A stretch of DNA of 6,603 nucleotides, from contig JAEOSI010000128.1 of NCBI GenBank assembly GCA_016840425.1, forward strand, positions 1 through 6,603, read 5' to 3'. Below, in pieces: positions 1 through 6,603 of this stretch; positions within the stretch are counted from its first letter, which is position 1; each line of letters opens with the position of its first letter. The notes beneath the pieces were generated by a model, which was not told where the DNA came from, did not search any database, and was given only the letters and a program-made list of their open reading frames with translations. The DNA comes from Candidatus Wukongarchaeum yapensis (lineage in GTDB: Archaea; Asgardarchaeota; Wukongarchaeia; Wukongarchaeales; Wukongarchaeaceae). The position numbers and the translations under genes were made by a program.

Positions 1-1196
1 AGTTCAGGGAGTTTATCTGTATCTTTTGAAGGTTCAGGTTTGGAAACAGTCTCTGTTAAAATCTTTAAATCTTCTGCTTCAATATTAAAAACACATGCTT
101 TCCCCTCACTAGATTTACACTCACTTTCAACCACTTCTAAAACTTTAAACCCAAAACCTTCAAAGATTCCATGAATAACGCCTGCAGACCAATTACACAA
201 ACCAACACTTTCACCATGCCCTTTAATAAAACTACACAACCAACACTCTTCATCCCTCAAAACCCCGCTAATTTTTCCCTCATCCCTACGAGAAAAACTT
301 GCTTGAACTTTTGTCCCAAAAAAATTAAACCAAAACCTTTTAACAAATTCTTCCAAAAAATCATCGCTTATATCCTTATTAGGCAAGTCAAGGAGACTTA
401 AGAGCTTAAAAGTGACATCTCTTCCACACTTATAAAAATCCTTTGAAGAAAAAGCCTTTGAAGAAAAAGCCTTACGAATACTCCCATAAACCAAAGAACA
501 TCCAAGAGGATACTTTCCCCCACTAAAAGAAGGTAAAAAACCCTTAACTCGATCAACTAAACGTTTAAACCAACCTGCACCACTATCCTTAACCAAACCT
601 CCAAGGAATAAACGATTAAAATCTTCATCTACCCTTTCCATATCAAGCTCAACAACCTCCTCCCGACCAAACCTACCAACAACAAGTCCTTCATCACCCT
701 TCCTCTCCACAATTTTTGAGAAACCTAACTCCTTTTTTCCCCTAAAACTCGAAAAAATCCTCTTAAAAATTGCGGGAAGATCATCATAAGAACTCTCATC
801 CTTCACTTTAGAAACCGCTTCTCGCAACAATTCTCTAATAACTTTCATATTCTCATTATCCCTCCCCTCAACCACCATAACCGCCATGTGCGGAAGTAAT
901 GCCCCTCTCTTCCCGAGAAGAGGCACATGTTCTACGATCACCACATCGTCTTCCCGGCTAAAAGTATCAGTAAACTCTGAGGCCACTTGTATCAGGCCAA
1001 GCCTTGCAGGATCATTAGCCTCGTAAGCAAACCAAGAACCTCTTGAAGAATAAAAATGACGCATAGCTGTTCCTATAACCTCATCAAACCAAAATGTGTA
1101 AATACCCACAATTCCAAGAGAATCAAGACACTTCTTTGTTTCTTCGTCAAAATCAATGGAAACAGGCTCTATTTTCATCCTTTCTATTCCCACCAT
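1..1196 (-). CDS. Longin/uDENN-like domain fused to a V4R (TRAPP Bet3-like) domain; partial, 3' end lies beyond the left edge
   Basis: Manual translation: open minus frame from an in-frame stop at 1263-1265 to the left edge, first ATG at 1196 (alternative ATG 1178), at least 398 aa. N-terminal region GIVGIYTFWFDEVIGTAMRHFYS...PARLGLIQVASEF...VVIVEHV...HMAVMVVE...MKVIRELLREAVSKV...LPAIFKRIFSSF (about 1115-744) fits the longin beta-beta-alpha-beta-beta-beta-alpha-alpha pattern and the uDENN-type FD-x3-G opening. C-terminal region FYKCGRDVTFKLL...EEFVKRFWFNFFG...ECWLCSF...LCNWSAGVIHGIFEGFGFKVLEVVESECKSSEGKACVFNI (about 440-80) carries the V4R C...C...G...E-x-C-x6-7-C-x-F signature. A P/S/K/T/D-rich linker (TETVSKPEPSKDTDKLPE) follows at the edge. 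CDS and V4R calls are firm; the longin call is less so. Confidence 0.8.
   Translation of the reverse strand, partial: MVGIERMKIEPVSIDFDEETKKCLDSLGIVGIYTFWFDEVIGTAMRHFYSSRGSWFAYEANDPARLGLIQVASEFTDTFSREDDVVIVEHVPLLGKRGALLPHMAVMVVEGRDNENMKVIRELLREAVSKVKDESSYDDLPAIFKRIFSSFRGKKELGFSKIVERKGDEGLVVGRFGREEVVELDMERVDEDFNRLFLGGLVKDSGAGWFKRLVDRVKGFLPSFSGGKYPLGCSLVYGSIRKAFSSKAFSSKDFYKCGRDVTFKLLSLLDLPNKDISDDFLEEFVKRFWFNFFGTKVQASFSRRDEGKISGVLRDEECWLCSFIKGHGESVGLCNWSAGVIHGIFEGFGFKVLEVVESECKSSEGKACVFNIEAEDLKILTETVSKPEPSKDTDKLPE
440..473. repeat. Perfect 15-bp tandem duplication, in frame within gene 1
   Basis: ctttgaagaaaaagc at 441-455 and 456-470, plus a partial ctt; encodes AFSSK twice (KAFSSKAFSSK) on the minus strand. 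Confidence 0.9.
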
Positions 1197-1266
1197 TTTT
1201 TCATTCCAAATATCTACAAAAACCAAAAACTCCTTAAAGATCCCATAAGTAAATAAATATAATTAA

Positions 1267-1280
1267 AAAACTTAAGTTTT
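1267..1280. promoter_or_regulatory. Perfect 14-bp palindrome in the divergent intergenic region, possible operator
   Basis: AAAACTTAAGTTTT is its own reverse complement and lies between the divergent starts at 1196 and 1440. The function is inferred. Confidence 0.3.
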
Positions 1281-1374
1281 ACCCAAGAAAAAACTGTTTT
1301 AAGAAAGATTTCAGCGGAAAAACCTTTTAACACATTTTTTTCCTTCTATGAAAGGTTCTTCATCGACCATCGCT

Positions 1375-1388
1375 AAAAAATATAAATA
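1375..1388 (+). promoter_or_regulatory. Putative archaeal BRE/TATA promoter for GTPase 1
   Basis: A-rich run followed by TATAAATA (1381-1388), about 50-60 nt upstream of the start codon. Confidence 0.4.
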
Positions 1389-1439
1389 ATGTGAAAAACT
1401 TTTCTTACCCGCTGAGAGGTAAAAAGTGAGAATTGTTAG

Positions 1440-2054
1440 GTGAACTCTTTGGAAAATGGCGCGAAAAACAGGTACCTTTGGAAGATACTTCTTTTGGGTG
1501 ATGGCAGCGTAGGAAAAAGTAGTATCAGAAGCGTCTTTATAGGCGAAGAGTTTAAAGAGATGATGCGCGCCACCATAGGCGCAGATATAACAAAAAAAAC
1601 CATGGATATAAACGGCAACATGATCACCTACATAATATATGACCTCGCAGGACAACCACACTTCGAAGTCGTTCGAGATCTTTTCTACCTAGGAGCCCAA
1701 GGAGCTCTCCTAATATTCGACATAACCAATAAAAGATCCCTTTACAACATACAAGGAGGATGGGTTAAAAACCTGTACCGCCTAGCAGGACACGTCCCAG
1801 CAGTTCTTATAGGAAATAAAATAGACCTCGAAGCAGAAAGGACCGTCACAAAAGAAGACGTAGAAGAACTACTAAAAACGATCTTAAACAACCACACAGA
1901 AAATCTCACCTACATCGAAACAAGTGCAAAAACCGGGGAAAACATAGAAAAACCCTTCATAATCCTTGGAGAACTCATACTAAAAATGAAAAATAAACAA
2001 AAAAGAAAAATACAAACACAAACAAAACATCCCCGAAAATCCACCATAAAATAA
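1440..2054 (+). CDS. Rab-like small GTPase (Ras superfamily), paralog 1
   Basis: G1 GDGSVGKSS, G2 ATIGAD, G3 YDLAGQ, FYLGAQGALLIFDIT, G4 NKID, G5 ETSAK. Basic C-terminal tail, no Cys prenylation motif. The start may be TTG at 1449, which has AGGTGA (1438-1443) as an SD-like motif 5 nt upstream. Confidence 0.95.
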   Translation: MNSLENGAKNRYLWKILLLGDGSVGKSSIRSVFIGEEFKEMMRATIGADITKKTMDINGNMITYIIYDLAGQPHFEVVRDLFYLGAQGALLIFDITNKRSLYNIQGGWVKNLYRLAGHVPAVLIGNKIDLEAERTVTKEDVEELLKTILNNHTENLTYIETSAKTGENIEKPFIILGELILKMKNKQKRKIQTQTKHPRKSTIK

Positions 2055-2149
2055 AAAATAACCTTCTTCAAAAACTTAAAAAATTATCCAAAATAATAAA
2101 CAAAATAATAGTTTGTTCATTTTATTAGTTGATTTAAAACGAGTTTGCC

Positions 2150-2166
2150 CCCTTTTTTTAAAAGGG
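2150..2166 (+). terminator. Short hairpin containing a T7 run, possible terminator after GTPase 1
   Basis: CCCTTTT-TTT-AAAAGGG (7-bp stem, 3-nt loop), about 100 nt after the stop at 2054. Confidence 0.25.
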
Positions 2167-2286
2167 AAGGAGATAAAAAAACAACAATACTTTTAAAACA
2201 CACCGCCCTAAAATTTCTGCAAAGCTAACCCAAAAAATCAAAAAAAAACATTAACATAAAAACGGTCAAATGATGCGTGGGGCGCT

Positions 2287-2841
2287 ATGGAAACTTCGCT
2301 TAAAAAAAAGAATTCAAAGACGGTTCATCGCCTTTGGACGCGCAGGTATAAGTGCATATGTTTGGGAGAATGGTCGGTAGGAAAAAGCTCCATCGCGAAA
2401 AGATTTTGCGACGGAACCTTCTCAGGAACATATCTACCCACCATAGGATGCGACTTCTTAACAAAAATAATAAAGATCGAAAACGAGACCATAAAGCTCA
2501 TAATATGGGATATTGCAGGACAAAGACTCTTTGCAAGCTTTAGAAGAGACTTCTACGAAGGAGCCCAAGGCGCCCTCCTAATCTTTGACATAACAAGACC
2601 AGAAAGCCTCCCACCCTTAAAAGAATGGAAGGAAGAAACCTTAAACGTTTGCGGAGAAATACCCTTCGTAATGTGCGCAAACAAAATAGACCTAGAAAGC
2701 ATGATAAGCAAAATAGAAGCACAAAAATTCGCAGAAAAAATAGACACACCCCTCCTATACACAAGCGCAAAAACCGGAGAAAACATAGAAGAAGCCTTCA
2801 CCCTCCTCACAGAAAAAATGTACAAAAACAAAAAAAACTAA
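2287..2841 (+). CDS. Rab-like small GTPase (Ras superfamily), paralog 2
   Basis: G1 GEWSVGKSS, G2 YLPTIGCDF (RabF1-like IGxDF), KLIIWDIAGQ (RabF2-like plus G3), FYEGAQGALLIFDIT, G4 NKID, G5 TSAK. Basic N-terminal extension, no prenylation motif. Confidence 0.95.
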   Translation: METSLKKKNSKTVHRLWTRRYKCICLGEWSVGKSSIAKRFCDGTFSGTYLPTIGCDFLTKIIKIENETIKLIIWDIAGQRLFASFRRDFYEGAQGALLIFDITRPESLPPLKEWKEETLNVCGEIPFVMCANKIDLESMISKIEAQKFAEKIDTPLLYTSAKTGENIEEAFTLLTEKMYKNKKN

Positions 2842-3060: not shown

Positions 3061-5340
3061 GTGGTACACCTTATGGAAAAAACAATCAAGAAAAAAACGA
3101 TCTTAAGATTAACAACCTTTATCCTAATCATCACACTCCTCATACCCCTATCTACCCCCTTATTCGATGAAAAAATAAACGAAGAAAACCAACTACAAGA
3201 AGTAAGTCTAGAATTAGACGTTATAACAGGAGATCTCTCAGCAAGACTTTCAGTCACTCCTGATCCAGCTATAAGAAAGCCTAATATGAATCCGATCCAT
3301 GTCATAGGATGGCTTCATGTAGGAAGCTATAACATTCCGGATGCGACTATATATGTCCTCTGGAATAATACTGAGGTCAACACTGGTACAACAGGTAGTG
3401 ATGGCACTTTTGACATTCCTCTTACTTTCAACCATATTAGGTATCGAGAAATCGGTAATATTAACGTAACAGCATGGTACAAAGGAGGAGAGTCCACTTT
3501 GCCAATAGCGACCTCCGAATTTATAACAGTTTATGCAACCTCTATGATGGTTATTAGTCTTTCTTCTCAAATCGTTAATCCTGGTGGTTCGTTTGATGCT
3601 TCTTTAACACTTTCATATGATAATGGTACACGTTTAGCTGGAGCTAATGCGTATCTTAGGTTATGGAATGGTACGGAATATGGACCTCAAGTAACAGATT
3701 TTAATGGACAAACAACTTTTACAATTGATGTAAATATTTCTGAATCTACAGGCTTTGATAAACCTGTTAGGGGAGCTGCTGATGTTAGTACTATACCAGG
3801 GGTTTCTCCATATCTTTTAGGAAGTGCTGGTATAATTGGTGATACTTGGGCTAATAATACAGCAAATATAGACGTTCTAATAATTGCTATTATAACTTTT
3901 GATGTTAGCGCTGATACTATCATTGGTAACTTACCTAATCCGCCAGTTCCGCCAACTATTCCTGAAGCATATAGAGGTACTTATTATGTGTGTCTAAATG
4001 GTACACTAAAAGATTCTTTTGGCCAACCAATAGTTGGGGAACAAGTCCAAGCAGCAATAGATGGTCAAGCTGTATCCGGTGCAATTAATTTTACAGGGGT
4101 TGGAGGATATTTTGAAATCGTCTTCCTTCTACCAATAACCACTGCAGTCAAAAATGTTAATATGACTGTAACAGAGAACAATGATACTCTTGATTCTGCT
4201 TCTGATGAAAAACCTCTTCGAGTTCTTGCAGGAACATATCTTAATAACGTTGATAAGGATCTTGATTTTTATTACAGAGGCGAAATCCTCTATGTGTATG
4301 GTAATCTTTATGATGATCAAAACAATCCTGTTACTTCAGAATTTGTTTCAGCTTTCCTTACTAACCAGAGTATCGGTTATAACTCTCCTACTTATGCAGA
4401 TCAAACGGATGGTTCTGGTTATTTCTCAATAGGAGTTGATACAAGCAGTGTACCTGCAGGAAACAGCTCCTGTGATTTGAACGTTACTTTTTATGGAGCA
4501 CCACCCCATTATGATCCGTCTTCTCTTGGCTTTTTTATTATTGTTAACTTTTTTACAAATTTTGATTTTACAGAAATCTTTCTCGGAGGCGTTTCTATAG
4601 ACGATTTATCAACGCTTGAAAAATCTACTGATTATAATGTGGAAGTACGGCTTGTGGATGAGTTTGGAAGATCTATAACAGGAAGAACAGTTGAAATCTT
4701 CTGGGATGGAAATAGTATTCTTAATACGACCACCGATGCTTCAGGAAAAGTTTACACTTCGTTCATTACAAGTGATTATAGCACCGATCTTCTTCCCTTA
4801 CAGTTTTCTTTCTATTACTTAGGTGGTTTCCAGCAATACATAGAGACCTATGATTTCTCTTTGAATAATATAGCGCCAACAATAGATAATTTCAGCGCTG
4901 AACCAGGAGAAGTTGTGATTGGAGAATCTTGCACGATAAGTGTAATAGGGTCAGATGATGGGCCTCTCTCTAATGTTACTTTAGTGTTAACTGATCCTGA
5001 TGGTAATGAGACCAGGGTGACACAGCAAGTAACCACTTCTTTAAACTTTGACATAGAATTCGTTATAGATACTTCTCAATCTGAATATGATGTTGTAGGT
5101 AATTGGACCTTCTACCTTATTGTTATTGACAGAGAAGGAGAATCTAGCTTTTCAGCCCAAGGACAGTTTACTGTAATAGAAAAGGAAGGCATGGATATTG
5201 GCGATCTAACCCTTGTTGTAGCTATTATAGCTGCTAATGTGTTAGCAGCAACTTCAGGCTACTTCATCGCAGGAAAGATAAGGGCTCAAGGGGGTTTAGG
5301 TCCATTTTTACACAGCTTAAAGACCAAATTCAAAAAATGA
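3061..5340 (+). CDS. Membrane-anchored cell-surface protein with tandem Ig-like / invasin (Big_1-like) beta-sandwich repeats, probably N-glycosylated
   Basis: N-terminal basic plus hydrophobic signal or anchor (KKKTILRLTTFILIITLLIPL). C-terminal TM helix (LTLVVAIIAANVLAATSGYFIAG) and short basic tail. Five repeats resembling G-x-L-x-D-x2-G-x-P-I-x4-V...T-D-x2-G-x-F plus a final Ig-like unit (NIAPTIDNF...NWTFYLIVIDREG). 18 N-x-S/T sequons counted by hand. ATG 3073, preceded by GGTGG, is the more likely start. Confidence 0.85.
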   Translation: MVHLMEKTIKKKTILRLTTFILIITLLIPLSTPLFDEKINEENQLQEVSLELDVITGDLSARLSVTPDPAIRKPNMNPIHVIGWLHVGSYNIPDATIYVLWNNTEVNTGTTGSDGTFDIPLTFNHIRYREIGNINVTAWYKGGESTLPIATSEFITVYATSMMVISLSSQIVNPGGSFDASLTLSYDNGTRLAGANAYLRLWNGTEYGPQVTDFNGQTTFTIDVNISESTGFDKPVRGAADVSTIPGVSPYLLGSAGIIGDTWANNTANIDVLIIAIITFDVSADTIIGNLPNPPVPPTIPEAYRGTYYVCLNGTLKDSFGQPIVGEQVQAAIDGQAVSGAINFTGVGGYFEIVFLLPITTAVKNVNMTVTENNDTLDSASDEKPLRVLAGTYLNNVDKDLDFYYRGEILYVYGNLYDDQNNPVTSEFVSAFLTNQSIGYNSPTYADQTDGSGYFSIGVDTSSVPAGNSSCDLNVTFYGAPPHYDPSSLGFFIIVNFFTNFDFTEIFLGGVSIDDLSTLEKSTDYNVEVRLVDEFGRSITGRTVEIFWDGNSILNTTTDASGKVYTSFITSDYSTDLLPLQFSFYYLGGFQQYIETYDFSLNNIAPTIDNFSAEPGEVVIGESCTISVIGSDDGPLSNVTLVLTDPDGNETRVTQQVTTSLNFDIEFVIDTSQSEYDVVGNWTFYLIVIDREGESSFSAQGQFTVIEKEGMDIGDLTLVVAIIAANVLAATSGYFIAGKIRAQGGLGPFLHSLKTKFKK

Positions 5341-5490: not shown

Positions 5491-6603
5491 TTGGAGAAGT
5501 TAAAGTTTTGGCTCCTTGATATTAATTATAAGATGGAAGAAGGGCTTCCTATTATCTATTTATGGGGGAAGGATGAGCGTTCAAGGACGATACTTGTTAG
5601 AGAGGAAGGATTTCGCCCCTATATCTATCTACGTTTAAATGAAGGAGCGAACTTAGATAGAGTTATGGAAGAGGTTAGAAAGCTTTCCGGTGAGAAGAAT
5701 CCTATCCTTAAGGTTGAGCCTGTTAAAAAAAGTTTTTTTGGTAAAGAAGTTACTGTGGTAAAAGTTACTTGTACAAGTCCTCCGATGGTTCCTGTTTTAA
5801 GGGAGGAAGCAAGTAGAATTGAAGGTGTTTTGGAGTATCTTGAGGCAGACATAAGGTTTACACAGAGATATCTGATTGATATGGATTTTTTCCCTTGTTC
5901 TTGGGTTGAAATTAAGGTCGAAAAACGAGAAGAGAAAACAATAAAGAAAGGAAAAAAAGAAGGAGAAAAGAAAGCAGGAGTTAAGCGTTCTTTAAACGTT
6001 GATGAGATTTTTGTTTTATTAAAGCCACCAGAGCCTTTGGAGGAGGAGAGTAAAAGCCTAGATGTACCCCTTTTAAAAGTTTTTGTTTTTGATATTGAAA
6101 CCTATAATCCTCGAGGTACACCTTCTGCCGAAGTAGATCCTACGATAATTGTGGGTTTCTTATATTCAGAAGAAAGTAATGGGGAAGAGGTTGGTCAGGT
6201 TAAACTTTTTACAGCAGATAAGCTTGATGATAAGAAAGTTATCAAGGATTTTTCCAAGTTTTTGATAGATTGTGATCCAGATATTGTTATGACGTATAAT
6301 GGCAACTTTTTTGACTGGCCTTATCTTTTAGAGAGGGCTAAGAAAAACAAAGTGAAATTAATTGTCGGGAGAGATGGTTCTGAGCCCCACGCCTCAACTT
6401 ATGGTCATATAAGCGTTACTGGCCGGGGAAACGTGGATCTTTACGATCTTGCCAGGCAACTTTACGAGGTTAAAAGGAAGACTTTGGAGAATGTTGCAGA
6501 ATACTTAGGTGTTACAAAGATAAGTGAACGGGTTGAAATTAATAAATTGGATATTTGGAAGTTCTGGGACGATGAAAAGAAAAGAGAGACTCTCTTAAAT
6601 TAC
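5491..6603 (+). CDS. polB: Archaeal family B DNA polymerase (PolB3-like); N-terminal and 3'-5' exonuclease domains, partial, runs off the right edge
   Basis: Manual translation, 371 codons open to the edge: MEKLKFWLLDINYKMEEGLPIIYLWG...FRPYIY...PPMVPVLRE...LEADIRFTQRYLID...ExoI FDIETY (6088-6105), ExoII YNGNFFDWPYL (6295-6327), GRGNVDLY...KRKTLENVAEYLG, with ExoIII beginning at the edge (LLNY). Residues matching the archaeal uracil-binding pocket (LDINY, RPY, VP, EADI) are present. Confidence 0.96.
   Translation, partial: MEKLKFWLLDINYKMEEGLPIIYLWGKDERSRTILVREEGFRPYIYLRLNEGANLDRVMEEVRKLSGEKNPILKVEPVKKSFFGKEVTVVKVTCTSPPMVPVLREEASRIEGVLEYLEADIRFTQRYLIDMDFFPCSWVEIKVEKREEKTIKKGKKEGEKKAGVKRSLNVDEIFVLLKPPEPLEEESKSLDVPLLKVFVFDIETYNPRGTPSAEVDPTIIVGFLYSEESNGEEVGQVKLFTADKLDDKKVIKDFSKFLIDCDPDIVMTYNGNFFDWPYLLERAKKNKVKLIVGRDGSEPHASTYGHISVTGRGNVDLYDLARQLYEVKRKTLENVAEYLGVTKISERVEINKLDIWKFWDDEKKRETLLNY

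Follow-up and report, generated by a model that had tools for sequence, protein, structure and literature searches.

A longin-V4R/Bet3 fusion protein as a candidate small-GTPase regulator beside two Rab-like GTPase genes in Candidatus Wukongarchaeum yapensis

Background

What is the role of an archaeal protein that joins in one chain the two folds of the eukaryotic TRAPP complex, a longin and a V4R/Bet3 fold, and whose gene stands beside two genes for Rab-like GTPases? The question is raised by a stretch of DNA from Candidatus Wukongarchaeum yapensis (the window), which is the entire contig C127 of assembly G000 (6,603 bases), a metagenome-assembled genome of 2.16 Mb in 277 contigs that is 92% complete. 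A preliminary description of the locus read the fusion protein, encoded by what we call gene 1, as a proto-TRAPP guanine nucleotide exchange factor (GEF) acting on its neighbours. Our analysis, based on sequence comparison and structure prediction, indicates that the longin domain of gene 1 belongs to a different class, the Asgard longins with a Gly-Pro (GP) motif, and that genes of this longin family adjoin small-GTPase genes in other Asgard families as well.

The N-terminal domain is a predicted longin of the GP-motif class

The elements of gene 1 are given below. Residues are numbered as in P0004, a homologue of 410 amino acids.

3 to 1196, minus strand: coding sequence of gene 1 (longin, linker, V4R/Bet3-fold domain, acidic proline-rich tail), from the open reading frame (ORF) at 3 to 1226 and the starts of homologues
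741 to 1163, minus strand: predicted longin domain (P0004 residues 12-152), with the order a0-b1-b2-a1-b3-b4-b5-a2-a3, from AlphaFold2 (AF2), fold searches and a profile
1068 to 1073, minus strand: Gly42-Thr43 of the b1-b2 loop, in the place of the invariant GP motif, from the alignment and the motif in PMC12290439
906 to 911, minus strand: Lys96-Arg97 of the b4-b5 loop (LLGKRGA, identical in four orthologues), from the alignment
576 to 740, minus strand: predicted flexible linker of 55 residues (P0004 153-207), a charged low-confidence stretch plus one helix, from the model and the ratio of nonsynonymous to synonymous substitution (dN/dS)
519 to 584, minus strand: Gly-flanked basic amphipathic helix GAGWFKRLVDRVKGF between the longin and V4R domains, from the alignment and AF2
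57 to 575, minus strand: predicted V4R/Bet3(TRAPPC3)-fold domain (P0004 208-380), from Pfam, Foldseek and relatives
93 to 245, minus strand: five cysteines, C318-x2-C321, C334, C360 and C368, from the alignment

The N-terminal domain and its stand-alone relatives are without a Pfam or NCBIfam family, and the Pfam longin families, including Sybindin (PF04099) and Sedlin (PF04628), gave no match to the domain even at E 10. Comparison of residues 1-165 with 400 Asgard genomes recovered weak end-to-end matches to stand-alone proteins of 136-185 amino acids. A profile generated from seven stand-alone longins, with gene 1 excluded, found gene 1 at E 1.2e-10 (profile positions 10-137) and also matched the N-termini of Asgard proteins of about 250 and about 400 amino acids; 80 of the 400 genomes had matches. 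Since a word-index search with this profile gave only six proteins, a genome-by-genome search was used instead.

The AF2 model of the domain was computed from a coherent 35-sequence alignment and reached a predicted local distance difference test score (pLDDT) of 84 and a predicted template modelling score of 0.80. Its elements are a0, strands at residues 29-38 and 42-50, a helix at 55-73, strands at 78-81, 84-94 and 100-110, and helices at 117-129 and 134-150. When the model was compared with 48,161 PDB chains by VIA-align, all of the top 50 rows were longin, roadblock or profilin-type folds (Z 7-8.8), among them C9orf72 (Z 8.8 over 131 residues), AP2 sigma/mu (8.5-8.8), VAMP7 (8.6), Npr2 (8.3), a Lokiarchaeal longin (8.1), sedlin (7.4), Trs23 (7.2), synbindin (7.0) and Mon1-Ccz1 (7.0-7.2). 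Foldseek returned NPRL2, Ykt6, C9orf72, DENND11, SMCR8 and AVL9, as well as an Asgard "Folliculin/SMCR8 longin domain-containing protein". We can confidently predict a longin fold for this domain, in agreement with the preliminary description. A full-length AF2 model from six near-identical sequences was poor (pLDDT 46.5) and was used for the order of elements and, with caution, for Foldseek only.

The class of this longin bears directly on the TRAPP reading. The GP motif is specific to the longins FLCN, NPRL2, SMCR8 and C9orf72, which belong to GTPase-activating proteins (GAPs), and to a class of Asgard longins, and is absent from adaptins, TRAPP subunits and DENND proteins (PMC12290439, Traffic 2025). 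Abundant "NPRL2-like longin" domains with varied fusion partners in narrow Asgard subsets were also described by Liu et al. (10.1101/2020.10.19.343400). In our alignment, Gly-Pro stands at the end of the b1-b2 loop in 31 of the 31 relatives aligned with the gene 1 longin. By sequence, the gene 1 longin is thus a member of the Asgard GP-motif class, and a divergent, possibly non-catalytic one, because all four gene 1 orthologues have GT in place of GP. Arg97, as far as the alignment can indicate, is a candidate arginine finger.

On the same grounds the gene 1 longin is not of the TRAPP (Bet5/Trs23) type, since it shows profile homology to the GP-motif class, the motif is absent from TRAPP longins, and C9orf72, AP and Npr2 are better fold matches; those to sedlin, Trs23 and synbindin (Z 7.0-7.4) are no better than those to other longins.

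Besides gene 1, the genome has a single gene of the GP-motif longin family, on contig C63 (3466-4665, minus strand; orthologue L053:1438-2643). This paralogue, of about 390-400 amino acids, keeps the GP and a conserved Arg and has a winged-helix-like C-terminus, with neither a V4R domain nor a GTPase neighbour. Its layout resembles that of NPRL2/NPRL3.

The longin family is linked to small-GTPase genes in other Asgard families

The preliminary description had proposed that the linkage to GTPases should be sought in relatives. Within the genus of gene 1 (g1), the arrangement of gene 1, GTPase 1 and GTPase 2 is kept at 0.26-0.39 synonymous substitutions per site (dS), and the same relatives also keep the CofE, pterin-binding, SIS and tRNA-synthetase genes on the other side of gene 1. 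Adjacency at the level of gene 1 itself could be followed within g1 only, where the full-length gene is found, and its conservation there is uninformative. The linkage was recovered at the level of the longin family: in three other genera, belonging to three families, homologous longin genes come right after a small-GTPase gene, in the same orientation.

Genus g19, L041:876-1953 and L042:817-1950: Ras/Rab-like GTPase gene upstream, for example with a 16-bp gap
Genus g18, L054:1096-2480, L055:758-2223 and L062:853-2220: Arf-like GTPase gene upstream, for example with a 4-bp overlap
Genus g10, L063:997-2350: Arf-like GTPase gene upstream, adjacent and co-oriented

Such GTPase-then-longin pairs account for six of the 28 loci outside g1, against a base rate of about 1% per neighbour. 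Because kin are not independent, we count the six loci as about three extra lineages. These data independently support a functional connection of this longin family with small GTPases. We met no report of operons of a GTPase gene followed by a GP-motif longin gene in the cited literature on Asgard longins. No V4R/Bet3-like gene was found within 1.5 kb of the 28 other members of the longin family.

The base rate derives from about 19 small-GTPase ORFs in the genome, that is, about 1% of genes if the genome has an estimated 2,000 or so. A GTPase gene as a given neighbour is for this reason unlikely by chance, with the caveat that the window was chosen after the fact. A complex prediction with two copies of the longin and GTPase 1 gave a median score of 0.31 against a mark of 0.32, run without controls, and speaks neither for nor against binding.

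The C-terminal domain and the linker

The C-terminal domain matches Pfam V4R (PF02830) at E 4.7e-6 (27.0 bits, below the cut-off of 31) and TRAPP/Bet3 (PF04051) at E 1.2e-4 (22.2 bits, below the cut-off of 27), and also the V4R end of MsvR (E 1.5e-3). Its nearest relatives elsewhere in the phylum are stand-alone proteins of 157-188 amino acids that score 31-37 bits with PF04051, against the cut-off of 27; these stand-alone Asgard TRAPP-like proteins align over the entire C-terminal domain of gene 1. Searches of PDB sequences with phmmer and with a profile of the domain gave no meaningful match.

In the low-confidence model (pLDDT 50-69 in this domain) the elements follow the Bet3 order alpha-alpha-beta-beta-alpha-alpha-beta-beta. 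Foldseek with this model matched TRAPPC6, Thor-TRAPPC3 (7yh3, 7yh2), Bet3, Trs33, H-NOX and the MJ1460 V4R protein at E 1e-4 to 2e-3, with template modelling scores by target of 0.43-0.59 for TRAPPC6, TRAPPC3, Bet3 and V4R. Given the model, these matches are taken as supportive only of a predicted Bet3/V4R fold.

The five cysteines of the domain are invariant and in register with those of the stand-alone Asgard TRAPP-like proteins. The structure of Thor-TRAPPC3 has a four-Cys Zn site (PMC10933270), and the cysteine cluster of gene 1 is a probable Zn site that fits it. A disordered, conserved acidic tail follows the Bet3-fold domain. In the amphipathic helix between the two domains, W209, F210, K211 and R216 are invariant, and the helix may be a membrane-binding element.

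Gene 1 is under purifying selection

Intact frames of gene 1 occur in at least five clusters (90% identity) drawn from many samples, and the locus is present in marine-sediment, mangrove and marsh metagenomes (14 studies). NCBI homologues include one that is 98% identical, labelled "Candidatus Wukongarchaeota archaeon", and one that is 83% identical, labelled "Candidatus Hodarchaeota archaeon". Against two relatives (L003 and L006), dN/dS is 0.25-0.30 for the whole gene, 0.16-0.19 for the longin part and 0.21-0.35 for the V4R part; the linker, at 0.45-0.48, is the least constrained part. These values show that gene 1 is a real gene under purifying selection. In one metatranscriptome library, short contigs match parts of gene 1 and of each GTPase gene, which is a weak hint of expression and not proof of transcription; the stretches left uncovered carry no information either way.

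Full-length searches of 5.8 billion clusters and of 1.84 billion representatives recovered only the gene's own family, and among the 1.84 billion representatives no relative outside genus g1 was found at E 1e-3. One protein, P0008 (342 amino acids, on a 1,307-bp ENA contig), has a V4R half 73% identical to that of gene 1 and, in place of the longin, a signal-peptide-like, beta-rich N-terminus; this is either a true variant architecture or a chimera produced by the assembly.

Judging by the starts of homologues, gene 1 begins at the ATG at 1196 (MVGIERMKIEP...) or alternatively at 1178 (MKIEP...). Because the window is a whole contig, gene 1 loses about 11-12 C-terminal codons at the contig end; the missing part is supplied by contig C269 (94% identical) and by P0004 (98% identical). 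The first 765 bases of C269 repeat the 3' half of gene 1 (window 1-774) at 94% identity and are followed by CofE and pterin-binding genes. This duplicate probably reflects strain heterogeneity that broke the assembly inside gene 1.

The neighbouring GTPase genes and the rest of the window

The fusion gene stands head-to-head with two Rab-like GTPase genes, as first described.

1197 to 1439, no strand: divergent AT-rich spacer, with a separate TATA-like box in each direction
1440 to 2054, plus strand: Rab-like GTPase 1, with a GTG start (Pfam Ras, E 1e-42)
2287 to 2841, plus strand: Rab-like GTPase 2 (Pfam Ras, E 1e-44)

The spacer, estimated before at about 240 bp, measures 243 bp, or 261 bp if gene 1 starts at 1178. 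Its central part of about 130 bp is almost invariant among relatives of the same genus, despite the coding dS of 0.26-0.39. Inside this block, in the middle of the spacer (window 1267-1280), lies a perfect 14-bp palindrome, AAAACTTAAGTTTT, which may be an operator or a chance occurrence in AT-rich DNA.

GTPase 1 has the motifs G1 GDGSVGKS, G3 DLAGQ, G4 NKID and G5 SAK and a polybasic C-terminal tail, and GTPase 2 has G1 GEWSVGKS, G3 DIAGQ and G4 NKID. With these motifs intact and with the Thorarchaeota Rab 7ezb, Rab8, Rab35 and Rab1 as the top PDB relatives of both, the assignment of the two genes as Rab-like GTPases holds. On sequence, we class them as Rab-like and not as bona fide Rabs, since neither ends in a C-terminal Cys prenylation motif. 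Paralogues of GTPase 2 were found at C114:4821-5417 (minus strand, about 81% DNA identity) and C187:8-1039 (minus strand, about 74%); in the copy on C187, Leu replaces the catalytic Gln (DIAGL) and about 150 amino acids are added at the C-terminus.

Downstream, window 3061-5340 (plus strand) encodes a protein of 759 amino acids with an N-terminal signal or transmembrane segment, Ig-like/macroglobulin-like repeats that give weak Pfam matches to MG4, Big_1 and CarboxypepD_reg, and a C-terminal transmembrane helix. It is probably a cell-surface protein. The last gene (5491-6603, plus strand) runs off the contig end; the part present encodes the N-terminus of a family B DNA polymerase, with its exonuclease domain matched at E 3e-28.

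Comparison with known longin and TRAPP systems

The preliminary description saw in the two TRAPP folds of one chain a Rosetta-stone link. The fusion is real, and this argument had already been made: Tran et al. 2024 (Commun Biol 7:273, PMC10933270) presented an AF2 model of a Heimdall longin-TRAPPC3 fusion, MBD3190748.1 (Fig. 9g / Suppl. Fig. 10g), and read it as a sign of a functional link among longin, TRAPPC3 and GTPase. Gene 1 shares with MBD3190748.1, compared here by its published description only, an N-terminal longin and a C-terminal TRAPPC3/V4R fold in one Asgard protein, but gene 1 stands beside Rab-like GTPase genes and gave no relatives outside its own genus at E 1e-3 among 1.8 billion representatives.

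Other longin-V4R fusions found in the phylum have 265-320 amino acids and a C-terminal V4R domain; of the six that were checked, five attain the Pfam cut-off for this domain. Their N-terminal domains show no detectable similarity to the longin family of gene 1, and two of them give weak Fuz/Mon1-longin hints. Gene 1 differs from these fusions in its length (about 420 amino acids, with the 55-residue linker), its longin class and its neighbourhood. No small membrane-protein gene adjoins it, and the genes downstream are the CofE and pterin-binding ones. Gene 1 is probably an independent fusion, because the N-domains of the other fusions are unlike its longin. An Asgard protein of 320 amino acids (L088:877-1836; G154:C381) has a C-terminal V4R domain (60 bits) and an FD..GP-like N-terminus (YFDNLEGPIP); it could be a second GP-type longin-V4R fusion, although its match to the longin profile, at E 7, is below significance.

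Gene 1 resembles the Asgard GP-motif longins and the eukaryotic longins FLCN, NPRL2, SMCR8 and C9orf72 in its predicted fold, in its profile homology to the Asgard members and in the linkage of its relatives to Arf-like or Rab-like GTPases. It differs from them in having GT for GP, in that Arg97 is only a candidate, and in its C-terminal partner, which is Bet3/V4R and not a DENN, NPRL2 C-terminal or two-component domain. The TRAPP core (Bet5/TRAPPC1, Trs23/TRAPPC4, Bet3/TRAPPC3, Trs31/C5, Trs33/C6; PDB 3cue, 7kmt) shares with gene 1 the longin and Bet3 folds, Rab-type clients or neighbours and a flexible tail. TRAPP, however, is a hetero-octamer of separate subunits with sybindin/sedlin-type longins, whereas gene 1 encodes a single chain with another longin class and a probable Zn/Cys site in the Bet3 fold. 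Thor-TRAPPC3 (7yh2, 7yh3) and the stand-alone Asgard TRAPP/V4R proteins have their Cys pattern in register with gene 1 (Foldseek E 2e-4 to 4e-4 for 7yh3/7yh2); they are dimers of about 150-190 amino acids, while the domain of gene 1 does not reach the Pfam cut-offs and shares its chain with a longin.

Possible roles of the fusion protein

The explanation that we favour, at middling confidence, is that domain shuffling gave rise to gene 1 and that its product is a lineage-specific regulator of small GTPases or a binding platform. For such a protein the longin class somewhat favours a GAP-type role, or one as the non-catalytic partner of a GAP (GT in place of GP, Arg97 as candidate), over that of a TRAPP-type GEF. 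In eukaryotes this class makes GAP pockets from paired longin domains, and the GP motif, which marks the catalytic partners, is degenerate in gene 1. The longin domain would pair with a second longin, either its own copy or the C63 paralogue, and the two together would contact a small GTPase at its switch face; GTPase 1 is the most likely partner, and GTPase 2 a possible one. Dimerisation, scaffolding, or the sensing of a ligand or the redox state would fall to the Bet3-fold domain, and the basic amphipathic helix of the linker may hold the protein at the membrane. A more specific version, which we regard as a long shot, makes gene 1 the non-catalytic half (GP to GT) of a heterodimeric longin GAP and the C63 paralogue (GP plus Arg, NPRL2-like longin plus winged helix) its catalytic half; the pair would act on the adjacent Rab-like GTPases, with the Bet3 fold and the helix scaffolding at the membrane.

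Several observations weigh against a GTPase regulator. The usual interpretation of V4R domains in prokaryotes is that they sense small molecules or redox state, and the Pro of the GP motif is lost in gene 1. No adjacency of gene 1 to GTPase genes was found beyond g1, the full-length gene being found in g1 only, and synteny within the genus carries no weight because dS is low and the housekeeping neighbours are equally kept. Head-to-head genes with separate promoters do not form an operon. No orthologue of GTPase 1 stands out outside the genus (the best matches are 43-48% identical, like paralogues), and two of the three GTPase-2-like genes in the genome lie away from any longin or V4R gene.

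Part of these data would fit a ligand- or redox-sensing adaptor unrelated to GTPases, in which the V4R domain has a small hydrophobic molecule as its ligand or acts as a redox sensor through the Zn/Cys site, the longin docks a protein or the membrane, and the adjacency is accidental. Homologues annotated as '4-vinyl reductase' and 'predicted hydrocarbon binding protein', the match to the V4R domain of the MsvR regulator family and the conserved five-Cys cluster all point in this direction, as do the uninformative synteny of gene 1 and the existence of other longin-V4R fusions without GTPase neighbours; domain architectures of Asgard eukaryotic signature proteins are, moreover, often narrow, shuffled products (10.1101/2020.10.19.343400). 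We nevertheless find such an adaptor unlikely, though a serious competitor, since genes of this longin family recur in operons with GTPase genes across other Asgard families, all longins of this class studied so far act on GTPases (PMC12290439), and two GTPase genes adjoin gene 1 against the base rate of about 1%. That gene 1 is a recent, functionally unimportant product of domain shuffling or a decaying gene is highly improbable: its restriction to one genus, the degenerate GP motif and the joining of the V4R half to a quite different N-terminus in P0008 would be expected of such a product, but the intact frame in at least five 90%-identity clusters, dN/dS of 0.16-0.35 across both domains, the invariant cysteines and the pieces present in the RNA library all argue otherwise.

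The proposal of the preliminary description, a single-chain minimal TRAPP, would have the dimer form a longin pair flanked by Bet3-like domains and act as a GEF for the neighbouring Rab-like GTPases. On such a reading, the flexible acidic C-terminal tail would play the part of the Bet3 C-terminus and pry open switch I. TRAPP depends on two distinct longins together with some four subunits of the Bet3 family, arranged in a set order, and nothing here points to that geometry. In the known complex Trs23 forms the Rab-binding face, to which Bet5 and two copies of Bet3 also contribute, and the flexible Bet3 C-terminus forces switch I open (PMC10152722). Parts of the proposal stand: both TRAPP folds occur in a single chain, the neighbours are Rab-like, the tie to GTPases exists at the family level, the Bet3 fold leads into a conserved, disordered tail, the stand-alone proteins most closely related to the C-terminal domain pass the Pfam TRAPP cut-off, and sedlin, Trs23 and synbindin are among the fold matches (Z 7.0-7.4). 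The longin, however, is not TRAPP-type; it is of the GP-motif/NPRL2-C9orf72 class, which excludes TRAPP longins according to PMC12290439, and has no Pfam Sybindin or Sedlin match at E 10, and the linkage of gene 1 to GTPase genes is limited to one genus. A minimal TRAPP is accordingly distinctly unlikely in our assessment.

Significance

Asgard small-GTPase genes are generally not operonic with roadblock, longin or TRAPPC3 genes, which makes it hard to match GTPases to their regulators (Tran et al. 2024, PMC10933270), and which GTPases partner the GP-motif Asgard longins is a question asked in PMC12290439. The locus gives an assayable candidate pair, a GP-class longin-Bet3 fusion beside Rab-like GTPases. 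The GTPase-then-longin operons of the other Asgard families provide further candidate pairs, Ras/Rab-like in one family and Arf-like in two, that bear on this question and may suit assays better than the divergent pair of the window. If the heterodimeric GAP were true, it would be an archaeal hybrid in which parts of a GATOR1/folliculin-type GAP and a part of TRAPP work in one machine, and it would suggest that these eukaryotic systems drew on a common Asgard tool-kit.

The longin-TRAPPC3 fusion as such was already known; what is new here is the different longin class and the GTPase neighbourhood. Taken with the earlier fusions, gene 1 shows that the fusion of a longin with a Bet3/V4R fold arose more than once among Asgard archaea, with different longin classes. 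This repeated joining supports a real functional affinity between the two folds, and it argues against any one fusion being the direct ancestor of TRAPP.

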